NCBI GenBank assembly: GCA_028713935.1
Contig: JAQTNI010000041.1
Span: 1-10,468, forward strand
Direction: 5' to 3'
DNA length: 10,468 bases
From: Candidatus Iainarchaeum sp.
GTDB taxonomy: Archaea; Iainarchaeota; Iainarchaeia; Iainarchaeales; GCA-2688035
The translations under genes and the position numbers were made by a program. The notes under the pieces were generated by a model, which saw only the letters and a program-made list of their open reading frames with translations, searched no databases and was not told where the DNA came from. Below, piece after piece: positions 1,791 through 10,011 of the stretch; positions within the stretch are counted from its first letter, which is position 1, and every line of letters starts with the position of its first letter.

Positions 1791-2918
1791 TTATTTTACT
1801 ACCAGGCCGACAAAAGAATTTCTTTTTGAAGAATGGCGTGGTACAGAACCGGAGTTTATTTCATAAAGCTTGACATGAGCCATGTTTGTCCAGGCGCTTA
1901 TCCAGGATGAAAAAACCAGTTCAATTATTATTCTTGGAACAATCAGCAAAATTGCCAAAATCGCAAAAAAAGAGGCAAAGCCAAAAATTGCCATTAGTGC
2001 GGCGTAACAAAGAGCAATTATAACCATGATAATCCCGAAAAGCAGGTTGAAAGCAATCGAATGAATGTATTTTCCCTGTGTTATTTCAATTGCCCTTCTA
2101 ATTATGCCAAAAGGGGTTTCATTTTCAAAAACAGCAATTGGGCCTATTACAACAAGATAAGGCGAAATCAGGAATAGGATTACAAAAAAAATGAACAACA
2201 AGGCAAGAAACATCAGCAAAAAGCCAACCAATGGAAGAATTGCTGAAGCGGCTGCTGTTCCCTGTGCAGCTGAAGCAACAAAAACAGGCAGCAGGTTTTG
2301 CAGCACAGAAGGCAAAGCAATCAAGGCAGGGGAAAAAATAATTACTGCCAGGATAAAAAGCAGTATCCCGACAAGAATTCTTGCGCCAAAAAGAGGAATG
2401 AATCTTTTTGCAGCGCTTGAAAAAGCATCTCCCAAATCCCCTTTTGCATTAAGAAACTGCCTTGCAAGAAAATAAGAAACAGCTTCAAAAAAAGAGGACA
2501 CAAAAACAGAAACAATTATGAAAACAGTTAGCAAGCCAAGAATTGCAATTATCAGTGCAGAAAAAATTGCGGGATTTGAAAGTGCGGTAACCAATTGCAA
2601 GCCAGAAGCCATTGCAGCGGGATTCTGGGCAAGCGCATCAAAAAGCAGTTTCAAAAGGTCAACACCCAAAACTCCGGAAGCCAAAAAAATTCCGGCCAAG
2701 CCAAAAACAACAAGCACTACCCCTGAAGCAATTGTCGCAAGGATAATGACAAGCAAAAAATAAAGAACCAAATAGCCATTCAGAGACTTCTTCAAAGAGT
2801 CAATTACTCCTTCAACATAAATTCCCATAAAAACCACAAATAATAACTGCAAACAACTATTTAAGAATTTCCAAGCATTGCCAAAAACCACGGTTTCAAA
2901 AAAAATAAAATTTTGCAA
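1791..2918 (-). CDS. Polytopic integral membrane protein, function unknown
   Basis: 375-aa ORF made almost entirely of long hydrophobic segments (roughly 9-10 predicted helices by eye). It has a short polar C-terminus. The listed start at 2918 is TTG. An ATG start at about 2828 (MGIYVEG...) is an alternative. Confidence 0.7.
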   Translation of the reverse strand: MQNFIFFETVVFGNAWKFLNSCLQLLFVVFMGIYVEGVIDSLKKSLNGYLVLYFLLVIILATIASGVVLVVFGLAGIFLASGVLGVDLLKLLFDALAQNPAAMASGLQLVTALSNPAIFSALIIAILGLLTVFIIVSVFVSSFFEAVSYFLARQFLNAKGDLGDAFSSAAKRFIPLFGARILVGILLFILAVIIFSPALIALPSVLQNLLPVFVASAAQGTAAASAILPLVGFLLMFLALLFIFFVILFLISPYLVVIGPIAVFENETPFGIIRRAIEITQGKYIHSIAFNLLFGIIMVIIALCYAALMAIFGFASFFAILAILLIVPRIIIELVFSSWISAWTNMAHVKLYEINSGSVPRHSSKRNSFVGLVVK

Positions 2919-2924
2919 AAAAAA

Positions 2925-3150
2925 GGGTCAGGCATCAGTTGAGCGTCTGCCCTTGCCTTGCCTGCGCTCTTGCGCATAAGAAAGAGCTGCGATTCTCCTC
3001 GGAATCTGGCTCCTGCGCACTTCACTGCTGCGCCTGTCAGAGCGCATTCTGGTGTTCACGCGAAAAGACGTTCCGGGAGAAACCCGCCTCTGGCGTTTGG
3101 AGATTCTTCTGTCAATGGGTTTTGGAATTCCAGCCATTTTTTCACCAATA
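2925..3150 (-). other. GC-rich island: candidate structured ncRNA, or a 69-aa Arg/Ser-rich basic protein gene (ORF 2928-3137)
   Basis: My hand count gives ~57% GC over 2941-3120 versus ~33% in flanking coding sequence. ORFs are open on both strands, as expected when AT-rich stop codons are scarce. Many GC-rich stems are possible (tgcgc/gcgca repeated; gattc/gaatc). On the minus strand a TATA-like tataaattaaata (rc of ~3168-3183) lies upstream. A GGTGA lies 4 nt before ATG 3137. A T8 run follows the tga. Confidence 0.4.
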
Positions 3151-3177
3151 ACAAATAACAGAGTCCCAGTATTTAAT

Positions 3178-3861
3178 TTATAGCTTTAATTTTTTTTTCA
3201 GTTTTTTCCAGATTTCAGAATGAATGTCTTCCTGTGGCCTTACAAAAAAAGAACCGTGCTTTTTCACTGCACAATCAATTGCAATCCACCTGTTCTTTTT
3301 TGCAAGCGAAGCATAAACTTTGCGCGTGCGCTCCAGATAAGCCGCGTCTGCCTCATGCAAATCTTTTTCTGAACCCTTCCTGTAATCCTCTTTCCTGTCC
3401 TGGCCAGCCATTAATTTTTGTGCCACTTCAGTCGGCATATTCAAAAAAACAACAGCATCAGCCCTTGGCATTCTCGATTCAAGGGATTCAACCCAGAAAA
3501 GGAATTTTTTTTGTTCGGAAGCCAGGGAAAACTTTGCTGTTTGATGCGCAATATTTGACTGGACATACCTGTTCATTACAAGAATTTTTCCAGCAGAAAC
3601 CTTTTCTTCAATTTCTTTTTTTATCTGGTACCTGTCAAGGGAATAAAGCAAAGCGCAAAATTCCGGAGCCAGGCTTTTGATTGGGCCGAATTCCCCCGAA
3701 AGGTGTTTTCCAGCCAAAGAGCCAAAAAAAGAGTCGTATCTTGGAAAAGAAAAAAGCTCGGCTTCAATTCCCAAAAACTGGAGCTTTTCAAAAAACAATT
3801 TTGTTTGAGTAGCCTTGCCGCTTGCATCAGTGCCTTCAAAAACAATAATAGCGCCTTTCAT
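3178..3861 (-). CDS. tmk: Thymidylate kinase (dTMP kinase)
   Basis: 227-aa ORF. N-terminal P-loop is IIVFEGTDASGKATQ. A DRY-type motif is present (SLDRYQ). Length and layout are typical of Tmk. Confidence 0.85.
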   Translation of the reverse strand: MKGAIIVFEGTDASGKATQTKLFFEKLQFLGIEAELFSFPRYDSFFGSLAGKHLSGEFGPIKSLAPEFCALLYSLDRYQIKKEIEEKVSAGKILVMNRYVQSNIAHQTAKFSLASEQKKFLFWVESLESRMPRADAVVFLNMPTEVAQKLMAGQDRKEDYRKGSEKDLHEADAAYLERTRKVYASLAKKNRWIAIDCAVKKHGSFFVRPQEDIHSEIWKKLKKKLKL

Positions 3862-3950
3862 GCAGAAACCTGAAAAATAAAGGAAAAAACTGGTTTAAAA
3901 AATAATGCCAAAGAAAATTATTTCAGGTTTTGGCTAAAAACCAAAAAAAA

Positions 3951-4021
3951 GCGTCCGTTGTCTAGCGGTAGGATCGCACCCTTCCAAGGTGCTGACCCGG
4001 GTTCGAATCCCGGCGGACGCA
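3951..4021 (+). tRNA. tRNA-Gly (anticodon UCC), no intron
   Basis: Acceptor stem GCGTCCG/CGGACGC (3951-3957 / 4014-4020). Anticodon stem gcacc/ggtgc with loop ct-TCC-aa. T arm ccggg-ttcgaat-cccgg. Discriminator A4021. Confidence 0.9.
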
Positions 4022-4024
4022 TGC

Positions 4025-4031
4025 TTTTTTT
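4025..4031 (+). terminator. Oligo-T (T7) archaeal-type terminator after tRNA-Gly(UCC)
   Basis: A run of 7 T begins 4 nt after the tRNA 3' end. Confidence 0.4.
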
Positions 4032-4095
4032 ATTTGAAAATTGAACCCCAAAAAAAGCGCTATGCATAAAAAGGAAAAGCAACACAAATTTTTGA

Positions 4096-4881
4096 ATGCA
4101 TGGAAAAAAATCTATTGCGGGAAAGGCCAGGGAGAGCGACAGAAGGCAAGAACGCCTTGAGGCTTTTCAGCGTTTGGTTGCTTCAAACGGCTTTGTAAAC
4201 CTGCAGCAGGTCCTGAGCGTCGCAAGAAAACACAATATTCCAGAAGAACACGCAAAAAGAATTGCTTTTCAACTTGGCTTTTTGGTACGAAAGAACAGGC
4301 GCCCTACAATAGAACATATTCCTGAAAGAAATATTGCCCGAGCTAATTTGAAAATTTTTGCTGCAACTTTTAAAAAATTTGAGAAGCTATTTTGGCAATT
4401 TGCAAATCCCTATATTGCGAAAGGAGTTCCTGAAACAATGCGGTATAATTATTGCATGGATTATTCAATGGCAACTATAGGAAAATTCAGGGGCGCGCGT
4501 TCGAAACTCAATTCTTGGGTTACAAATGGATGGGCGCAGGCAATGCGATCCGCATATCGGGATTTTTTAACAAGAGAAAAAAAGGAACATACAGTCGGCT
4601 CAAAAAAGAAAGGCTATTCTTTTTGGGATACGCAGGGAAGCGAACAAATGAGGCCTGAAGAAGAAACAATTCTTTTTGAACAAAGGCAGAGACTACACAA
4701 AGCGCTAGCACAGTTGCCTGCAAGAGAACGGGAAATTATCCAGCGGTATTATGGAATTGGCACAGGGATTAGCGAGACACATCAGGAGATAGGGGACAGC
4801 TTGGGCATTTCCAGAACTGCTTCAACCCAAAATGTGGAGAGAGCGCTTAAAAAGCTCCGTGAAGCCCTGCAAGAGGAATAA
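4096..4881 (+). CDS. Sigma-70-family-like protein (region 2-like and region 4 HTH) with an N-terminal extension
   Basis: 261-aa ORF. The C-terminus LPAREREIIQRYYGIGTGISETHQEIGDSLGISRTASTQNVERALKKLREAL fits the sigma-70 region 4.1/4.2 pattern (L..RE..v...RyG......T..EIg..lgiSr..v.Q.e..AL.KLR). The central KFRGARSKLNSWVTNGWAQAMRSAYRDFLTREKK resembles region 2 (F..W....a.n...d.lR). Confidence 0.6.
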   Translation: MHGKKSIAGKARESDRRQERLEAFQRLVASNGFVNLQQVLSVARKHNIPEEHAKRIAFQLGFLVRKNRRPTIEHIPERNIARANLKIFAATFKKFEKLFWQFANPYIAKGVPETMRYNYCMDYSMATIGKFRGARSKLNSWVTNGWAQAMRSAYRDFLTREKKEHTVGSKKKGYSFWDTQGSEQMRPEEETILFEQRQRLHKALAQLPAREREIIQRYYGIGTGISETHQEIGDSLGISRTASTQNVERALKKLREALQEE

Positions 4882-4900
4882 TACACCCAAGAGTGAATTT

Positions 4901-5209
4901 ATGAAACCAAACAAGAATTTTGTGCAAAAAATTGCTTTGGAAAGGATTTACAGATTGTTTGAATTGGCAGAAGAGGAATTTGAAAAAAACCCGGGTTTTG
5001 CAAAAAAATGCATTGAATTTGCGCGCAGAATAAGCACGAGAAACAAGGCAAAAATTCCGGCTGAACTGAAACAAAAATTCTGCAAAAAATGCGGAGCTTT
5101 CTTAAAAAACGGCAAAAATTGTGAAACTGAAAAAATTGGCTGCCTTGTAAAAATAAAATGCCTTGAATGCGGCTTTGAAAGGAAAACAAGGGCAGAGAAT
5201 TCGAAATAA
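4901..5209 (+). CDS. rnp4: RNase P protein component 4 (Rpp21/Rpr2 family)
   Basis: N-terminal helical part is ALERIYRLFELAEEEF...AKKCIEFARRIS. C-terminal zinc ribbon is CKKCG...(23 aa)...CLECG. ATG 4901 was chosen over the ORF-track start 4832, which would overlap the upstream gene. Confidence 0.75.
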   Translation: MKPNKNFVQKIALERIYRLFELAEEEFEKNPGFAKKCIEFARRISTRNKAKIPAELKQKFCKKCGAFLKNGKNCETEKIGCLVKIKCLECGFERKTRAENSK

Positions 5210-5217
5210 TAAAACAA

Positions 5218-5574
5218 CTATTTGTTTTTTCGCTTGTCGATTCCGGAACGCCTGTCGTCAAAATAATAATAACGAGTATTTCCTCTCATTTCTGGCGGAG
5301 GACGCGCATTGAGCTCTTGCATTTCTGGAGCATCCGATGGCAACAATTGTACTGGGATGGTGTTAGGAAACTTTACGGGAAGTTTGTCGCGCCCTTTGCC
5401 GATTCGCATAAGAGAAAAAACGTTGTATCCTCTTAAGCCATATCCCTGCTTTTTTAATTCTTCATAAGTGAAAAACCGTTTGCTATTTTGGCTCTGGACG
5501 GCAAACCCATCATCCAATTTCTTGATAACCCTTGTTTGGGTTATCCATTTTCCTTTTTGTTCGCGTAAATCCAT
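5218..5574 (-). CDS. Hypothetical 118-aa protein, no recognisable family
   Basis: Clean ATG ORF preceded on the minus strand by ggagttggtaaATG (SD-like). It is divergent from the AbrB-like gene and shares the palindrome-rich promoter. Confidence 0.5.
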   Translation of the reverse strand: MDLREQKGKWITQTRVIKKLDDGFAVQSQNSKRFFTYEELKKQGYGLRGYNVFSLMRIGKGRDKLPVKFPNTIPVQLLPSDAPEMQELNARPPPEMRGNTRYYYFDDRRSGIDKRKNK

Positions 5575-5590
5575 TTTACCAACTCCATTT

Positions 5591-5668
5591 TAGGTACCTA
5601 AATTAGGTACCGAAATCTTTTAAATAAGTAGGTACCTAATGATAGCATTAAAAGTCGTGGGTACCTAC
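5591..5668. promoter_or_regulatory. Divergent promoter with four GGTACC-core palindromic operator candidates around a bidirectional TATA-like element
   Basis: Sites: taggtaccta (5591-5600), taggtaccga (5604-5613), taggtaccta (5629-5638) and gggtacctac (5659-5668). The near-palindromic cttttaaataag (about 5616-5628) lies between sites 2 and 3. Only one other GGTACC occurs in the window, at 3627-3632. Confidence 0.6.
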
Positions 5669-5669
5669 T

Positions 5670-5852
5670 ATGAACGGAATGAAACTCCAAAAACAGTCAA
5701 CCAGAAAAGTAGGCACCAAAGAATATGTAAAATGGGTTACCACAATTTCCCCAAAACTAATTCAAGACCTTGATTGGAAAGAAGGCGACCAACTTGAACC
5801 ATCGACAAGAGGAAAAAAACTTATAATTCAAAAGAAAGGGGAAAAGAAATGA
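5670..5852 (+). CDS. AbrB/SpoVT/MazE-type (swapped-hairpin) small DNA-binding protein
   Basis: 60-aa ORF. VTTISPKLIQDLDWKEGDQLEPSTRGKKLIIQKK fits the AbrB-family pattern (v.IPk.i.e.Lgl.eGD.le....g..l.i.k). Confidence 0.6.
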   Translation: MNGMKLQKQSTRKVGTKEYVKWVTTISPKLIQDLDWKEGDQLEPSTRGKKLIIQKKGEKK

Positions 5853-5906
5853 CTTTTACCGGCATCGCACCGCCACCAAAAAGTTTTAGAATAAAAAATT
5901 GACGAG

Positions 5907-6881
5907 ATGAAGGAACCGTATATGACCATAGCATATGATTGTGTAAAATGCGGAAATGCGACCGATGCAAAGCAAGGTACAAAAAGATTGGCTATCCAGT
6001 TCTGCCGAGATTGTTTTGGAAAAAGGAAAGATTTACGACAAAATAGATTAAACAATTTGAATGGGAAAGAGTGGGCTGGATTTAGCAAGAGTGTTGAAGA
6101 TTACCCTGGAAATCGAACAGAAAAACAACGCGAACATGGCGCTTGTTATCCGCTTTCGCTTGCCAAACAGCAAATCAGTATTTACACAAAAAAAGGGCAC
6201 ACTGTTTTTGACCCTTTTTTGGGGGTCGGAACAACAGCAGAAGCCGCCGAAATGTTGGGAAGAAAATCCATTGGAATCGAGCTAAACAAAAAATTTGTTG
6301 AACTCGCAAAAAAAGACATAAAAAATAAAGAAAACCATACAATCATACAGGGCGACGCAAGAAACCTTTTGAAGCACATAGCCCCCAATAGCATTGATTT
6401 TCAATTAACGAGTCCACCATATGGCAATCTACTTAAAACAGTGAAAGGAGAGTTTGCGTTCAAATGGAAAGAACATTCAAAAATGAACACTGTAAAAAAT
6501 CCGATTCCCTACTCGTCCGATATAAAGGATTTAGGAAACTTACCATATGCAGAATTCATATCAAGCATTGAGAATATTTTCAAGGACAGCCTTAAAGTAC
6601 TTAAAGATGGTGCATATGCAGTATGGGTTGTAAAAGATTACCGAGACTTGGAAGAAAAAAAACCGCTCGTAAACTTTCATTCTGATATTATTCGCGCTGC
6701 CGAAAACGCGGGTTTAACCCTTTGGGACATTAAGATTTACGACCAGACAAAATTTCGCCCACTTGTTGTATTAGGCTATCCATCAAACAACTATTATCTA
6801 AACATTGGTCACTCTTATATTTTGGTTTTCAGAAAATATTTGAGTGGACGATATGCAAGAGAAACTGGTCAAAGAGTATGA
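5907..6881 (+). CDS. DNA methyltransferase 1 (N4/N6 family, SPPY type) with N-terminal zinc ribbon; AdoMet motif precedes the catalytic motif
   Basis: CVKCG...(17 aa)...CRDCF zinc ribbon. GACYPLSLAKQQISIYTKKGHTVFDPFLGVGTTAEAAEMLGRKSIGIELN matches the AdoMet-binding module of N4/N6 methylases. About 60 aa later comes IDFQLTSPPYGNL (motif IV). Then LKVLKDGAYAVWVVKD. Confidence 0.8.
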   Translation: MKEPYMTIAYDCVKCGNATDAKQGTKRLAIQFCRDCFGKRKDLRQNRLNNLNGKEWAGFSKSVEDYPGNRTEKQREHGACYPLSLAKQQISIYTKKGHTVFDPFLGVGTTAEAAEMLGRKSIGIELNKKFVELAKKDIKNKENHTIIQGDARNLLKHIAPNSIDFQLTSPPYGNLLKTVKGEFAFKWKEHSKMNTVKNPIPYSSDIKDLGNLPYAEFISSIENIFKDSLKVLKDGAYAVWVVKDYRDLEEKKPLVNFHSDIIRAAENAGLTLWDIKIYDQTKFRPLVVLGYPSNNYYLNIGHSYILVFRKYLSGRYARETGQRV

Positions 6882-7344
6882 AAAAAGCGCGAAAAACATC
6901 GCACTTGACCTTGATAACTACACTAATAACAACTATTTAACCCACAATTTTCACCCCTACCCCGCAAAGTACATACCGCAGATACCGAAGGAAATTCTTC
7001 TCCGATTATCAAAAAAAGACGATTGGATACTTGACCCATTTTGCGGCTCTGGAACGACTTTGGTAGAAGCCAAACTCTGTGGCAGGAATTCCATTGGCAG
7101 CGATATTAACCCGCTTTCTTGTATAATTACAAAAGTAAAGACAACAAAATTATCTGAAAATCAAATAAAAGAAATTCGGGAAATCTTAAATCAAGCGAGA
7201 GCAGACTTTATTAGCAAGAAAAAATACCCCGTTCCAGAATACTTAAACATTGATATGTGGTTTGACCGAGAAATAAAAGAGCAACTTGCCATCCTAAAAT
7301 ACCACATCAGTTTGGTCAAAGAGGATGAAGTCAAAATTTTTTAA
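6853..7344 (+). CDS. DNA methyltransferase 2, N-terminal fragment/subunit (AdoMet-binding motif I)
   Basis: HNFHPYPAKYIPQIPKEILLRLSKKDDWILDPFCGSGTTLVEAKLCGRNSIGSDINP. The ORF-track start is GTG 6844; the ATG is at 6853. The ORF ends at TAA 7342-7344, immediately after an A4T6 tract. Confidence 0.7.
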   Translation: MQEKLVKEYEKSAKNIALDLDNYTNNNYLTHNFHPYPAKYIPQIPKEILLRLSKKDDWILDPFCGSGTTLVEAKLCGRNSIGSDINPLSCIITKVKTTKLSENQIKEIREILNQARADFISKKKYPVPEYLNIDMWFDREIKEQLAILKYHISLVKEDEVKIF

Positions 7345-7991
7345 TGGTTGCTTTTTCTTCCATACTTGTAAAAGTGTCAAATCAAGATAGCGATACCCGT
7401 TACGCTGCAATTAAAAAAAAATTGCCACAAAATGCTGTTTGGTCTTATTTTGACAAGAAAGCAAAAGACATGCTGAAACGGATTGAAAGTTTTAACGCAG
7501 AAGCATCAAATTGTCCATGCGAAGTTTATCTTTCGGATTCTCGCAATCTGGACTTTCTCAAAAAGGAAATTGACCTTGTAATCACATCCCCGCCATATTT
7601 GAATAGCTATGATTATTACCTTTACCACAAACACCGGATGCTGTGGTTGGGACTAGACTACAGGAGTGCACAAGAAAAAGAATTTGGCTCAAGGAACAAG
7701 CATAGTGATAACCATGAAGGTATAGAAAGCTATGTAGATGCAGTAACCGCGAGCGTAAGTCATATTTCAAAAAATCTGAAAAAAAACGCGCATTTCTGTG
7801 TAATCATTGGCGACGCAATATTAAAAGGGGAAATTATAAAAATGAATGCGATCTTTGACGAAATTTTTCTAAAACAAGGATATACAAAAACTCGCGAAAT
7901 TCGTTTTGAGCAAAGAAAGTACACAAGAACATTTACCCCAAATATTAAAACCAAATTCAAGGAGTCATATATTCTAATATATCGGCGTTAA
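7344..7991 (+). CDS. DNA methyltransferase 2, C-terminal fragment/subunit (catalytic SPPY motif IV)
   Basis: Contains IDLVITSPPYLNSYDYY and HFCVIIGD. The ATG overlaps the upstream stop (TAATG). The frame is open only from 7329. Its stop overlaps the convergent nuclease stop (ttaa, 7988-7991). Confidence 0.7.
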   Translation: MVAFSSILVKVSNQDSDTRYAAIKKKLPQNAVWSYFDKKAKDMLKRIESFNAEASNCPCEVYLSDSRNLDFLKKEIDLVITSPPYLNSYDYYLYHKHRMLWLGLDYRSAQEKEFGSRNKHSDNHEGIESYVDAVTASVSHISKNLKKNAHFCVIIGDAILKGEIIKMNAIFDEIFLKQGYTKTREIRFEQRKYTRTFTPNIKTKFKESYILIYRR

Positions 7992-9139
7992 AGCGAAGAA
8001 TATCTTTTATCGCCAAAAGAAGAATATTCCGTTGAACTTTTTGAGATTACTCTAACTATAAACCAAACATCAGGGTTATCCGTCAATTTGAACTCCAAAA
8101 TATCGCCGCTTGAAAGAGAATTTAACATTGTTCGATTTAGAAATGTAAATCGCAATTCTTGATTCTTTCGTGCATGGGTTGGGGCGGGCAAGTAGTGAAT
8201 TGCTCTGACATTATTGAGTCGATTTTTTTCACCTGCTGAATCTAGCATAATAATATTAAAAAAAACGTCTGCTTGTCTGGCGTCACTTTCGGTGGTAACC
8301 CAATCAGAAAACGGTGGAAAATAGGTCAAAAACTGAATAGGTATTACTATTTGGCCTGGGGAACTGGTTTGGCTCACGTCATTTTTAGATAACTTTTTCC
8401 AAAAACCGCGATTGATTGAGGATATTCCAGTAACTTCCAAATTTTGTTCATCTCGTTGGTGTATGATAGTAACGGGCGGCGGGCGAAAGGATTCTGAACC
8501 AAATATTGGTTCCTTTCCAGCAGATTGGGATTCAAATCGGCTCCCGTATCCTGCCCCAGATTCAACTTCCTCATTCCCCAAATAATTTTTTTGAATGAGT
8601 CGATTAAGTAGTTCGGGTGAAAGGCACTTACAACAGGGCGAGGTTGCACTTGAATAAGAGGAAAATATCGATTTGTATTTTGAATACTCCGTTAGTTGTT
8701 CTTGGTTTGTCAAATCAAAATCATACTGGCAGTTTATTTCATAATTTGTGTATAGCCCACCCGCAGTTAGATTACTTGAACCAACGATAACTATAGCCCG
8801 CAAATTATTTTTTTCAAAAAAATATATTTTGGGGTGAAACGTTTGGGTTATGCTCTCGCTATGATACACATAAAGCTCATCACACAATGGGAGTAACATC
8901 TGAAGCCCTTGTTGCGAAGTATTTTTTTGGTCAATCCCAACGATTCCTTTAATGTGCCCGCCCGATTGTCGAAATCGTTGAAGATATGGCTGTAATCGAA
9001 TTACTCCGCTTTTCTTTACATACGCCGCCATGAAATAGAAGGTATCAAAGGAATCTGTTTGTGGGAGGTTCAGAAGTTCTGCGAGTTTTTCCCCTGCCTT
9101 TTTGTTTCGGGGCTGGTCAATAAGTTCAATCCAAGTCAT
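7988..9139 (-). CDS. Restriction endonuclease candidate: N-terminal HKD/PLD-family nuclease fused to a C-terminal B3/EcoRII-N-like DNA-binding domain (BfiI-like)
   Basis: 383-aa ORF. It has a single HKD motif, HPKIYFFEKNNLRAIVIVGSSNLTAGG (HxK...GSxN). The C-terminal GFWKKLSKNDVSQTSSPGQIVIPIQFLTYFP ... SGDILEFK fits the F.K.Ls.nDv......q..IP......fP ... GD...F pattern of B3 / EcoRII N-terminal pseudobarrels. Confidence 0.7.
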   Translation of the reverse strand: MTWIELIDQPRNKKAGEKLAELLNLPQTDSFDTFYFMAAYVKKSGVIRLQPYLQRFRQSGGHIKGIVGIDQKNTSQQGLQMLLPLCDELYVYHSESITQTFHPKIYFFEKNNLRAIVIVGSSNLTAGGLYTNYEINCQYDFDLTNQEQLTEYSKYKSIFSSYSSATSPCCKCLSPELLNRLIQKNYLGNEEVESGAGYGSRFESQSAGKEPIFGSESFRPPPVTIIHQRDEQNLEVTGISSINRGFWKKLSKNDVSQTSSPGQIVIPIQFLTYFPPFSDWVTTESDARQADVFFNIIMLDSAGEKNRLNNVRAIHYLPAPTHARKNQELRFTFLNRTMLNSLSSGDILEFKLTDNPDVWFIVRVISKSSTEYSSFGDKRYSSL

Positions 9140-9174: not shown

Positions 9175-9417
9175 ACCAAACAACGCTTTTGATGGATTTG
9201 AGGCAGTAGACAAAATAAGTGACAAAAACAGGGTTTAATCGAATATGCACACAGCCGAGTGAATACTTAAACAAAGCCTCATATGAGGCGCTCGCAAGGC
9301 TTTTAAACACTCTTTTTCAAGAACTTATTATTGAATTGAAAAATTCTTTTTTTTGCTTCCGAAAGGTTAAGCAAAAAGCGCCGAAAGGGCGTTGAAAAGT
9401 ATTGAGAGGGATTGTAA

Positions 9418-10011
9418 TTGAAAGCGTTTGATGTTGCACCTGGAAGGCTTGTTGAAGCAACTGCACTGGAACTGGAAAAGCTTGGCACAAAGGCGCCTGA
9501 ATGGGCTTTGTTTGTCAAGACTGGCTCGCACAGGGAAAGAGCGCCTCATAAGAGGGATTGGTGGCAGTTCAGGCTTGCAAGCATTCTTTACAGGATTTTA
9601 CGGGAAGGCCCGATTGGAACCCAGAGATTGAGAACTTATTATGGTGGAAGGAAAAACAGGGGAGTTGCGCCTCCAGTATTCAGGAGATCCGGAGGAAAAA
9701 TTATCCGGGTTTGCCTGCAGGAATTGGAAAAGCTTGGCTTTGTGCAAAAAAACAAGGCAGGCGGAAGAATTATTTCCGCAAAAGGCAATGCGTTTTTGGA
9801 TAAAATGGCAAAAGAAGCGGCAAGAATTGAAGCAGAAGAAACAGCCCATGCTGTTGAGAGAAAAGCAGAAAAGGAAAGGGAAAGGGCGAAAAAAGACGCT
9901 GAAGAAAGAAAAGTAAAGGAAGAGCTCAGAAAAATCGGGGGTGCGCCTGACAAGAAGCATGAAAAAAAGGCTGTGAAAAAGAAAAAGTCCGAAGGCGAAA
10001 CAAATGAATGA
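9418..10011 (+). CDS. rps19e: 30S ribosomal protein S19e with a Lys/Glu-rich C-terminal extension
   Basis: PEWALFVKTGSHRERAP..RDWWQFRLASILYRILREGPIGTQRLRTYYGGRKNRGVAPPVFRRSGGKIIRVCLQELEKLGFV is the S19e signature. The listed start is TTG. About 65 aa of tail follow the conserved domain. Confidence 0.9.
   Translation: MKAFDVAPGRLVEATALELEKLGTKAPEWALFVKTGSHRERAPHKRDWWQFRLASILYRILREGPIGTQRLRTYYGGRKNRGVAPPVFRRSGGKIIRVCLQELEKLGFVQKNKAGGRIISAKGNAFLDKMAKEAARIEAEETAHAVERKAEKERERAKKDAEERKVKEELRKIGGAPDKKHEKKAVKKKKSEGETNE

Follow-up and report, generated by a model that had tools for sequence, protein, structure and literature searches.

A strongly derived sigma-70-family protein with sigma2 and sigma4 domains encoded in the chromosome of a Candidatus Iainarchaeum archaeon

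Transcription initiation is defined by sigma factors in bacteria and by TBP and TFB in archaea. Genes of the sigma-70 family (fam00359) have been described from DPANN archaea, above all from Woesearchaeota, on contigs that carry archaeal marker genes and for which mis-binning was ruled out, with no anti-sigma factors and with the mechanism left open (Castelle et al. 2021, Front Microbiol; PMC8204110); the DPANN genomes with sigma-70 genes also carry TBP, TFB and TFE (PMC8204110). In addition, archaea employ sigma4-like or LuxR-like helix-turn-helix (HTH) domains, such as those of Tfx, HTH_10/Bat and LuxR solos, as ordinary regulators (PMC5413776). Our searches of the literature turned up no work on the function or structure of sigma-like proteins from archaea. 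Here we analyze a gene located at positions 4096-4881 of a contig of Candidatus Iainarchaeum sp. (JAQTNI010000041.1), which is analyzed in its entirety (10,468 bp) and is hereinafter referred to as the window. Its product is a true, if highly diverged, sigma-70 family protein that contains sigma2 and sigma4 and lacks sigma3. The phenomenon is the same as that represented by fam00359, the report on which stresses Woesearchaeota and does not give the domain anatomy; the exact protein is labeled in NCBI 'MAG: sigma-70 family RNA polymerase sigma factor [Candidatus ainarchaeum sp.]' (MAG, metagenome-assembled genome). The surprise at such a gene, voiced in a preliminary description that was made from the DNA alone, is therefore legitimate, but the phenomenon itself was published in 2021 (PMC8204110) and the protein already bears the name of the family. 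What is new is the description of a compact subfamily of the Iainarchaeota/Micrarchaeota type, which may or may not belong to fam00359, with its N-terminal module, replaced region 2.2, divergent recognition helix, accelerated evolution and paralog arrays.

The assignment of the C-terminal domain follows from direct profile matches. The full Sigma70_r4 profile (PF04545) matches residues 203-256 of the window protein with a score of 49.7 bits and an E-value of 2.6e-13 (cut-off 24.1 bits), in agreement with the preliminary description, which had recognized sigma-70 region 4 in the C-terminal 55 amino acids, and the same profile matches all 14 members of the family that is delineated below. A second region 4 profile, PF08281, also passes in the window protein at 30.5 bits, below the PF04545 score, and is matched by 7 of the 14 family members, and the sigma-70 superfamily model TIGR02937 covers residues 125-258 with 69.1 bits (cut-off 42.9). 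None of the equivalog and subfamily models (SigK, RpoD, RpoS, FliA, subfamilies of extracytoplasmic function (ECF) sigma factors) comes near its cut-off; SigK, for instance, scores 36 against 252. Among the Pfam matches of the window protein at E <= 0.1, GerE/LuxR is absent and HTH_10 is marginal (E 0.033).

The evidence for region 2 is of a different kind. Pfam Sigma70_r2 does not match the window protein taken alone at E <= 0.1, so that the region 2 call rests on the family profile; individually, 6 of the 14 family members match PF04542 (Sigma70_r2), the best with an E-value of 1.2e-4. When compared with the PDB, the family profile retrieves SigA (110 bits) and RpoS (96 bits); it matches sigma2 (regions 2.1-2.4) of cyanobacterial SigA, residues 160-225, as a separate stretch with an independent E-value (i-E) of 2e-5 and aligns with RpoS continuously, with sigma3 deleted. 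A profile limited to sigma2 still finds the sigma2 domains of SigA and RpoS at E-values of 1.4e-6 to 2.2e-6, and its best 40 PDB matches are all sigma factors. The hhalign comparison with a profile of 16 bacterial primary-like sigma factors yields a probability of 99.8% and an E-value of 1.6e-27 over regions 2.1-4.2 (family columns 81-253 against template columns 52-277), again with sigma3 deleted, and the segment KLNSWVTNGWAQAMRSAYRDF of the window protein aligns with regions 2.3-2.4 of bacterial SigA. A further PDB search gave E-values of 4e-5 for SigA and 0.003-0.03 for ECF sigma factors. Thus, the region 2-like segment that had been perceived upstream of region 4 is borne out, and of the HMMER comparisons that had been proposed for this protein, Sigma70_r4 passes, whereas Sigma70_r2 is silent on the single sequence and emerges through the profile of 14 relatives. 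Sigma2 is detected independently of sigma4 and GerE is absent, which speaks against a generic HTH of the LuxR/GerE type.

Structural modeling lends moderate support to region 2, without proving it by itself. The AlphaFold2 (AF2) model is all-helical, with a mean predicted local distance difference test score (pLDDT) of 81 and disorder at residues 64-74 and 168-182, and the best 50 Foldseek matches of the full model in the PDB are all sigma factors. The isolated sigma2 model (pLDDT 91) superimposes on sigma70/sigmaA with a query-normalized TM-score (TMq) of 0.47-0.57 (0.52-0.57 for the best matches) at about 3 Å, at Foldseek E-values greater than 1.

With respect to bacterial counterparts, the protein combines features of different groups. 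By sequence as well as by profile, sigma2 and sigma4 alike are matched best by group 1/2 sigma factors (RpoD/SigA, RpoS), and sigma4 shares with them the R-F-G-L motif with the accompanying insertion and, at the level of the family, the E-R-V-R-Q helix; unlike these factors, the window protein lacks regions 1.1/1.2 and sigma3, has lost the core-binding signature and W433, and resides in an archaeal host. The two-domain architecture, sigma2-linker-sigma4 without sigma3, is that of ECF (group 4) sigma factors, and the 'sigma70-ECF' model TIGR02937 is passed; however, PF04545 outscores PF08281, ECF structures rank far below SigA and RpoS, the window protein possesses an extra N-terminal module, and there is no co-encoded anti-sigma factor, which is a typical, albeit not universal, companion of ECF sigma factors. 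Judging from these alignments, both domains are closest to group 1-3 sigma factors rather than to ECF, despite the ECF-like architecture.

The extension that precedes sigma2 had been put at approximately 100 amino acids; it is actually about 77 amino acids long, with sigma2 beginning at about residue 78-85 according to the AF2 model, hhalign and the residue table described below. This N-terminal module is common to 12 of the 14 family members and absent from bacterial sigma factors, given that hhalign leaves it unaligned. A profile search of the PDB with the module retrieved only designed 'dTor' helical repeat proteins, with a score inflated by repeats (i-E of at least 0.13 per stretch), and comparison with Pfam produced nothing significant, with a marginal HeH/LEM match (E 0.065, in 1 of 12 members) and Ish1 and TetR_N matches in single members.

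The family was found by an exhaustive phmmer search of 1.84 billion representative sequences, which produced 442 matches at E <= 1e-3 and 12 at E <= 1e-10. A word-index search with the single protein gave only weak matches to bacterial sigma4; with the family alignment, it gave mostly bacterial sigma factors and two family members, and with the sigma2-only alignment, none. The full-length relatives are 217-323 amino acids long (P0008, P0009, P0010, P0011, P0013, P0014, P0017, P0019, P0025-27, P0031 and P0036), and all named family members are archaeal, belonging to Ca. ainarchaeum, Ca. Micrarchaeota or an 'archaeon' (HLD58555-58557). The latter three are tandem paralogs of 252, 254 and 259 amino acids located beside a Nop2-type methylase gene (L007, L009, L010), whereas P0009 and P0027 are two dispersed paralogs on one 831,093-bp contig (L004, L012) that is archaeal by virtue of a 145-nt intron-containing tRNA, an archaeal-type PGI above the cut-off and a KaiC_arch match. 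The search of GTDB genomes with a 3-sequence alignment recovered only the already known Iainarchaeum locus, and the search of JGI metagenomes yielded a single locus (L014), which contributed no new ortholog because all six genes that were compared show 100% identity with L004. No relatives were detected among IMG/VR viral contigs, GenBank phages or PLSDB plasmids, and a recent mobile-element or viral origin was rejected for this reason. Possession of a common N-terminal module suggests that the family arose only once; it presumably was founded by an old transfer of a bacterial sigma gene of the group 1-3 type, followed by inheritance in archaeal chromosomes. Six of the phmmer matches (P0012, P0015, P0016, P0018, P0020 and P0022) are proteins of 647-1,722 amino acids in each of which 6-11 sigma-70 region 4 stretches are matched separately (5-11 tandem sigma4 repeats among the giant proteins of the list as a whole), an unusual repeat architecture; these proteins carry no source names, except for an 87-amino-acid fragment in the P0022 cluster that is annotated 'DNA-directed RNA polymerase sigma subunit'.

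To compare the functional surfaces, we tabulated equivalent residues of the 14 family members, the 16 bacterial sigma factors and E. coli sigma70, in E. coli numbering, which is consistent (the E. coli sequence ends at 613, and Y430, W433 and W434 fall in place). Nine residues of regions 2.1/2.2 are invariant in the 16 bacterial sigma factors, namely N383, L384, R385, D403, I405, G408, N409, G411 and L412. This signature for binding the beta-prime clamp helices (N-L-R and D-L-I-x-x-G-N-x-G-L) is replaced in its entirety in both the family and the window protein. In region 2.2, the bacterial DLIQEGNxGLM gives way to the family motif x-L-Y-D-Y-C-x-D-x-S, with D at position 406 in 12 of the 14 members, C at 408 in 8, D at 410 in 11 and S at 412 in 9. 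The -10 region is partially preserved: F419 is represented by F or Y in all 14 members, position 430 is aromatic in all 14 (Y430 is replaced by W in 12) and W434 is kept in 13, but W433 is changed to N in 9, I435 is deleted, and Q437 and T440 vary among members; at the positions of Y430, W433, W434, Q437 and T440, the residues of the window protein are W, N, W, Q and R, respectively. At the level of the family, sigma4 is nearly canonical, with L551 (14/14), E555 (12/14), R562 (12/14), F563 (F or Y, 14/14), G564 (13/14), L598 (13/14) and R599 (12/14). The family consensus of the recognition helix is E-R-V-R-Q, with E585 in 10, R586 in 6, R588 in 10 and Q589 in 9 of the 14 members. Among the residues that contact the -35 element (R584, E585, R586, R588 and Q589), the window protein, with R-T-A-S-T-Q, retains R584 and Q589 only, and its ortholog in the related genome DeMMO3_25 reads I-E-T-V-R-N. 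Taken together, these alignments indicate that the family retains the predicted sigma fold and, in most members, a canonical DNA-reading helix, and that the surface holding the core enzyme has been exchanged.

Residue C120 of the window protein is the conserved family cysteine (8 of 14 members) in the remodeled region 2.2 helix. Two paralogs have redox-linked neighbors: the P0009 gene overlaps an AhpC/TSA peroxiredoxin gene by 4 nt (L003/L004 4513-5855), and the P0019 gene is followed by genes for DsbA-like, thioredoxin-like and glutaredoxin proteins (L011 471-4594). Conceivably, the conserved cysteine together with these neighbors may point to redox-responsive regulation.

Several lines of evidence indicate that the gene resides in an archaeal chromosome. 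The best relative (P0008, 42% identity) is encoded in a 32-kb contig (L002) from another site, 'MAG: Candidatus Iainarchaeum archaeon isolate DeMMO3_25', where the gene order is HAD, membrane protein, Tmk, sigma, Rpr2, S19e, PDCD5-like, an unknown gene, L31e, eIF6, LX, prefoldin and FtsY, with tRNA-Gly upstream of sigma; this order equals that in the window, save for approximately 4 kb of additional sequence between Rpp21 and S19e in the latter. The Rpp21 proteins of the two genomes are 86% identical (BLASTP, 96 amino acids). The tRNA-Gly of DeMMO3_25 contains an intron-like insertion that the copy in the window lacks. An independent Logan assembly (L001, run SRR22315509) covers positions 2208-7930 of the window at 99.98% identity with identical junctions. 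The third-position GC content (GC3) of the sigma-like gene is 0.374, compared to 0.31-0.42 in the neighboring genes, and the composition is uniform over positions 4001-5800, with no tetranucleotide break at 4881-4901. Within the reach of sequence data, neither chimerism nor mis-binning is involved: synteny in DeMMO3_25, the Logan assembly and composition all agree with the preliminary description, which had dismissed a binning artifact and had named a chimeric join between 4881 and 4901 as a refutation, and which also had the coordinates, the shared strand and the 19-nt spacer before Rpp21 right (by open reading frame (ORF) reading and the PF04032 and NF003045 matches). The adjacency of Rpp21, which had been given prominence there, attests to archaeal residence but not to a functional link, being kept only in the two Iainarchaeum genomes, and it says nothing on function because the contexts of other family members differ. 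The six gene contexts comprise Rpr2; AhpC and radical SAM; an ArsR-like HTH protein; tandem paralogs with a Nop2-like methylase; DsbA, thioredoxin and glutaredoxin; and hypothetical proteins, and no anti-sigma-like or other shared neighbor recurs across the six, in line with the findings for fam00359 (PMC8204110).

The sigma-like gene changes much faster than its surroundings. Comparison of the window with DeMMO3_25 for this gene and six flanking genes gives protein identities of 39-42% for the former and 74-86% for the latter, non-synonymous distances (dN) of 0.66 and 0.08-0.15, and synonymous distances (dS, NG86 method) of 1.6 and 0.42-0.98, respectively. Identity at four-fold degenerate sites in conserved residues is 0.50 (19/38) for the sigma-like gene and 0.62 (218/353) for the flanks (Fisher p = 0.17). 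The simplest reading of these values appears to be orthology with approximately five-fold faster amino acid change; xenologous displacement, which the higher dS could have implied, was set aside given that the difference at four-fold sites is not significant. Depending on the dS that is chosen, dN/dS of the sigma-like gene ranges from about 0.4 to about 1. The ORF is intact in both orthologs despite the dN of 0.66, and the window protein retains the family motifs GVP, DYC.D.S, FDP, WVTNGW and RFG. Because both ORFs are intact and the motifs persist, we consider it more likely that the gene is functional, with selection on it being weak or in part diversifying, than that it is a relic.

What the sigma fold could do in a cell without its own polymerase, in tiny DPANN genomes where the sigma2+sigma4 protein is intact and duplicated, is a question that has become more testable now that the domain boundaries, the changed surface (region 2.2) and the canonical surface (the sigma4 helix) are defined. 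We propose, with a probability of roughly 0.55, that the protein is a domesticated sequence-specific DNA-binding transcription regulator that acts in the archaeal cytoplasm via the sigma4 HTH. Under this scenario, an archaeal-style promoter would drive transcription of the gene, probably along with Rpp21, into an mRNA with almost no leader; the sigma4 HTH would bind specific DNA in the archaeal cytoplasm; and, as the residues with which bacterial sigma factors grip the beta-prime clamp helices are all replaced, the protein would not serve a bacterial-type core polymerase as its specificity subunit. Sigma2 and the N-terminal module would contact some other partner, and the family-conserved residues at the former core-binding positions suggest a new partner surface. 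The targets of the regulator probably would differ even between close relatives, considering the approximately five-fold faster non-synonymous change, recognition helix included. DNA binding is plausible given that sigma4 of the family keeps E585, R588, Q589, L598 and R599, and the likeliest functional analogy is with regulators such as Tfx, HTH_10/Bat and LuxR solos, which similarly place a sigma4-type HTH in a cell that depends on TBP and TFB but lack sigma2. If the protein is a DNA-binding regulator only, it would exemplify how a basal factor, once transferred, can end up as an ordinary activator or repressor. Repurposing as a DNA-binding regulator had been envisaged in the preliminary description and is the best-supported reading, but several observations weigh against it. 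With 3 of the 5 -35-contact residues changed in the window protein, even DNA binding is not assured. The retention of a full sigma2 is not explained by a simple HTH regulator and hints at a role related to polymerase or single-stranded DNA, and the structural match of sigma2 itself is moderate, with a TMq of about 0.5 and non-significant Foldseek E-values. Finally, when the dS of the flanks (0.42-0.98) is used, dN/dS nears 0.7-1, which could mean weak constraint.

The hint from sigma2 leads to an RNA polymerase (RNAP)-binding specificity or initiation factor adapted to the archaeal polymerase, which we consider unlikely. The clamp coiled-coil of Rpo1N (A') corresponds by homology to the beta-prime clamp helices and serves as a site for TFE and Spt5; the region 2.2 helix would dock on this coiled-coil and sigma4 would read an upstream promoter element, resulting in redirection of, or competition with, initiation that depends on TBP, TFB and TFE. 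The complete sigma2 fold, the presence of family-conserved residues rather than decay in the core-binding helix, the preserved part of the -10 pocket (positions 419, 430 and 434), and paralog sets in one small genome that resemble sets of alternative sigma factors, with no anti-sigma factor, all are compatible with such a factor. On the other hand, W433 and I435 are lost and Q437 and T440 vary; in bacteria, sigma4 docks on the flap-tip helix of beta, and the archaeal RNAP environment differs at this location, where TFB binds; and evolution as fast as that observed here is unusual for a subunit that has to fit a conserved polymerase. The corollary that some DPANN run a bacterial-style layer of alternative sigma factors, with 2-3 paralogs per genome re-fitted to the archaeal RNAP, atop or against TBP, TFB and TFE, seems quite improbable; if archaeal RNAP binding were true, this would be a rare cross-domain transfer of a basal transcription factor. 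It is more improbable yet that the gene, once acquired by horizontal transfer, has lost its function or is decaying under near-neutral drift, its reading frame being still open by chance. The high dN and low identity, the strong dissimilarity of the recognition helices of the two orthologs, and the rarity of the family (12 matches at E <= 1e-10 in the entire representative set) would fit a relic, but a neutral ORF of 783 nt would be expected, by a rough estimate, to accumulate about 20 stop codons, whereas both orthologs are intact and have the same start context, the family motifs are retained, and the genes have been repeatedly duplicated. Action on the RNAP of a bacterial host or partner, as had been entertained in the preliminary description, is disfavored and in our view very improbable: membership in the sigma family, the frequent episymbiotic lifestyle of DPANN and the lack of a cognate core enzyme in archaea make it conceivable, but the core-binding residues of regions 2.1/2.2, including the region 2.2 signature, are all replaced, the basic, hydrophilic N-terminus, as read from the sequence, includes no signal peptide or transmembrane segment and thus no export signal, there are no secretion genes nearby in the window or in the DeMMO3_25 contig, and the known DPANN hosts are archaea (PMC8204110). 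Least credible of all is an artifact, that is, a bacterial fragment joined to an archaeal contig or a LuxR/GerE HTH over-called as sigma; Pfam sees only region 4 in the single sequence and the contig comes from a metagenome-assembled genome, but the junctions are repeated in a second assembly and in an Iainarchaeum genome from another site, the composition does not change along positions 4001-5800, sigma2 is detected independently of sigma4, and GerE is absent at E <= 0.1.

The putative expression signals of the gene were examined in both genomes. The conserved upstream block (Table 1) contains a run rich in A and then, some 30 nt ahead of the ATG, TATGCATAAAAA, and the start context, TTTTTGAATG, is identical in the window gene and in the DeMMO3_25 ortholog; no Shine-Dalgarno motif precedes the ATG. 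We infer that this block is a putative archaeal promoter with a TFB recognition element (BRE) and a TATA box, from which a nearly leaderless mRNA would be produced. The sigma-like gene and Rpp21 probably are co-transcribed because oligo-T runs are missing from the spacer between them, and T6 first occurs at 5225-5230, past the Rpp21 stop codon. For the ortholog (L002 5968-6756), the NCBI call is a protein of 251 amino acids that starts at 6001 and the JGI call one of 262 amino acids; the NCBI start probably is 11 codons too far downstream, given that the upstream ATG shares the TTTTTGAATG context with the window gene and fits the 262-amino-acid JGI version. A scan of the region for bacterial sigma-70 promoters found 6 sites against 2.5 expected, which is uninformative in an AT-rich archaeal genome.

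Table 1. Coordinates of the sigma-like gene, its parts and other features of the window
Feature	Position	Strand	Details
tRNA-Gly(UCC)	3951-4021	+	ARAGORN; Rfam 61.6 bits; directly upstream of the sigma-like gene
Conserved upstream block	4050-4084	+	35 nt; about 31/35 nt the same as in the Iainarchaeum ortholog, by eye; putative promoter
Sigma-70-family coding sequence	4096-4881	+	ATG 4096-4098; stop TAA 4879-4881; 261 aa
N-terminal module	4096-4326	+	aa 1-77; basic tail; helices aa 7-31, 36-45 and 50-59; low-confidence linker aa 60-77
Sigma2-like domain	4327-4602	+	aa ~78-169; four-helix unit equivalent to regions 2.1-2.4
Region 2.2 equivalent	4438-4470	+	MRYNYCMDYSM, aa 115-125; residue table
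Region 2.3/2.4 equivalent	4504-4566	+	KLNSWVTNGWAQAMRSAYRDF, aa 137-157; family profile alignments and residue table
Linker sigma2/sigma4	4603-4653	+	aa 170-186, 17 residues, in place of sigma3; pLDDT < 50 at aa 168-182
Sigma4	4654-4875	+	aa 187-260, regions 4.1-4.2; group 1-3 type, R-[FY]-G-[IL] motif and insertion; PDB alignments with SigA and RpoS
Sigma4 recognition helix	4810-4863	+	SRTASTQNVERALKKLRE, aa 239-256; residue table
Spacer sigma-like gene/Rpp21	4882-4900	+	19 nt; no oligo-T run; weak Shine-Dalgarno-like GAGTGA before the Rpp21 ATG
Rpp21/Rpr2, RNase P protein component 4	4901-5209	+	102 aa; PF04032 E 5.8e-12; NF003045 E 1.3e-18
Orphan ORF	5218-5574	-	inside the island
AbrB/SpoVT-like protein	5670-5852		60 aa; inside the island
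PLD/NgoFVII-type restriction endonuclease	7988-9139	-	inside the island

The window encodes several other archaeal proteins, including S19e (E 1.6e-41), a PDCD5-like DNA-binding protein, thymidylate kinase and a HAD hydrolase. It also contains two ordinary tRNAs and one intron-containing tRNA of 156 nt, which was found by Rfam alone: this tRNA, at 1333-1488 on the plus strand, scores 45.5 bits and is missed by ARAGORN, presumably due to one or more introns. Its counterpart in L002 is 162 nt long and is located at 3565-3726.

The approximately 4 kb between Rpp21 and the S19e promoter (about 5218-9139) is absent in DeMMO3_25, where Rpr2 and S19e are 100 nt apart. In addition to the features listed in Table 1, this segment encodes two N6_N4 DNA methyltransferases, and its tetranucleotide correlation with the whole contig falls to 0.78-0.88; it looks like an inserted restriction-modification island. 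In the window, the second methyltransferase gene (6844-7991) is broken into two ORFs, 6844-7344 and 7344-7991. In the Logan assembly L001, which deviates from the window by exactly one gap over 5,724 nt, a single ORF of at least 359 amino acids runs across this point. The split may be due to an indel introduced during assembly or else to a genuine frameshift or phase variant.

The leader that precedes S19e (about 9345-9400; the gene starts at 9418) is conserved with L002 and by eye contains two hairpins with GAAA-type loops, GCTTCCGAAAGGTTAAGC and CGCC-GAAAG-GGCG. This leader may be a structured 5' leader of a ribosomal-protein operon; in L002, the stem of the second hairpin is CACC...GGTG, a compensatory change.

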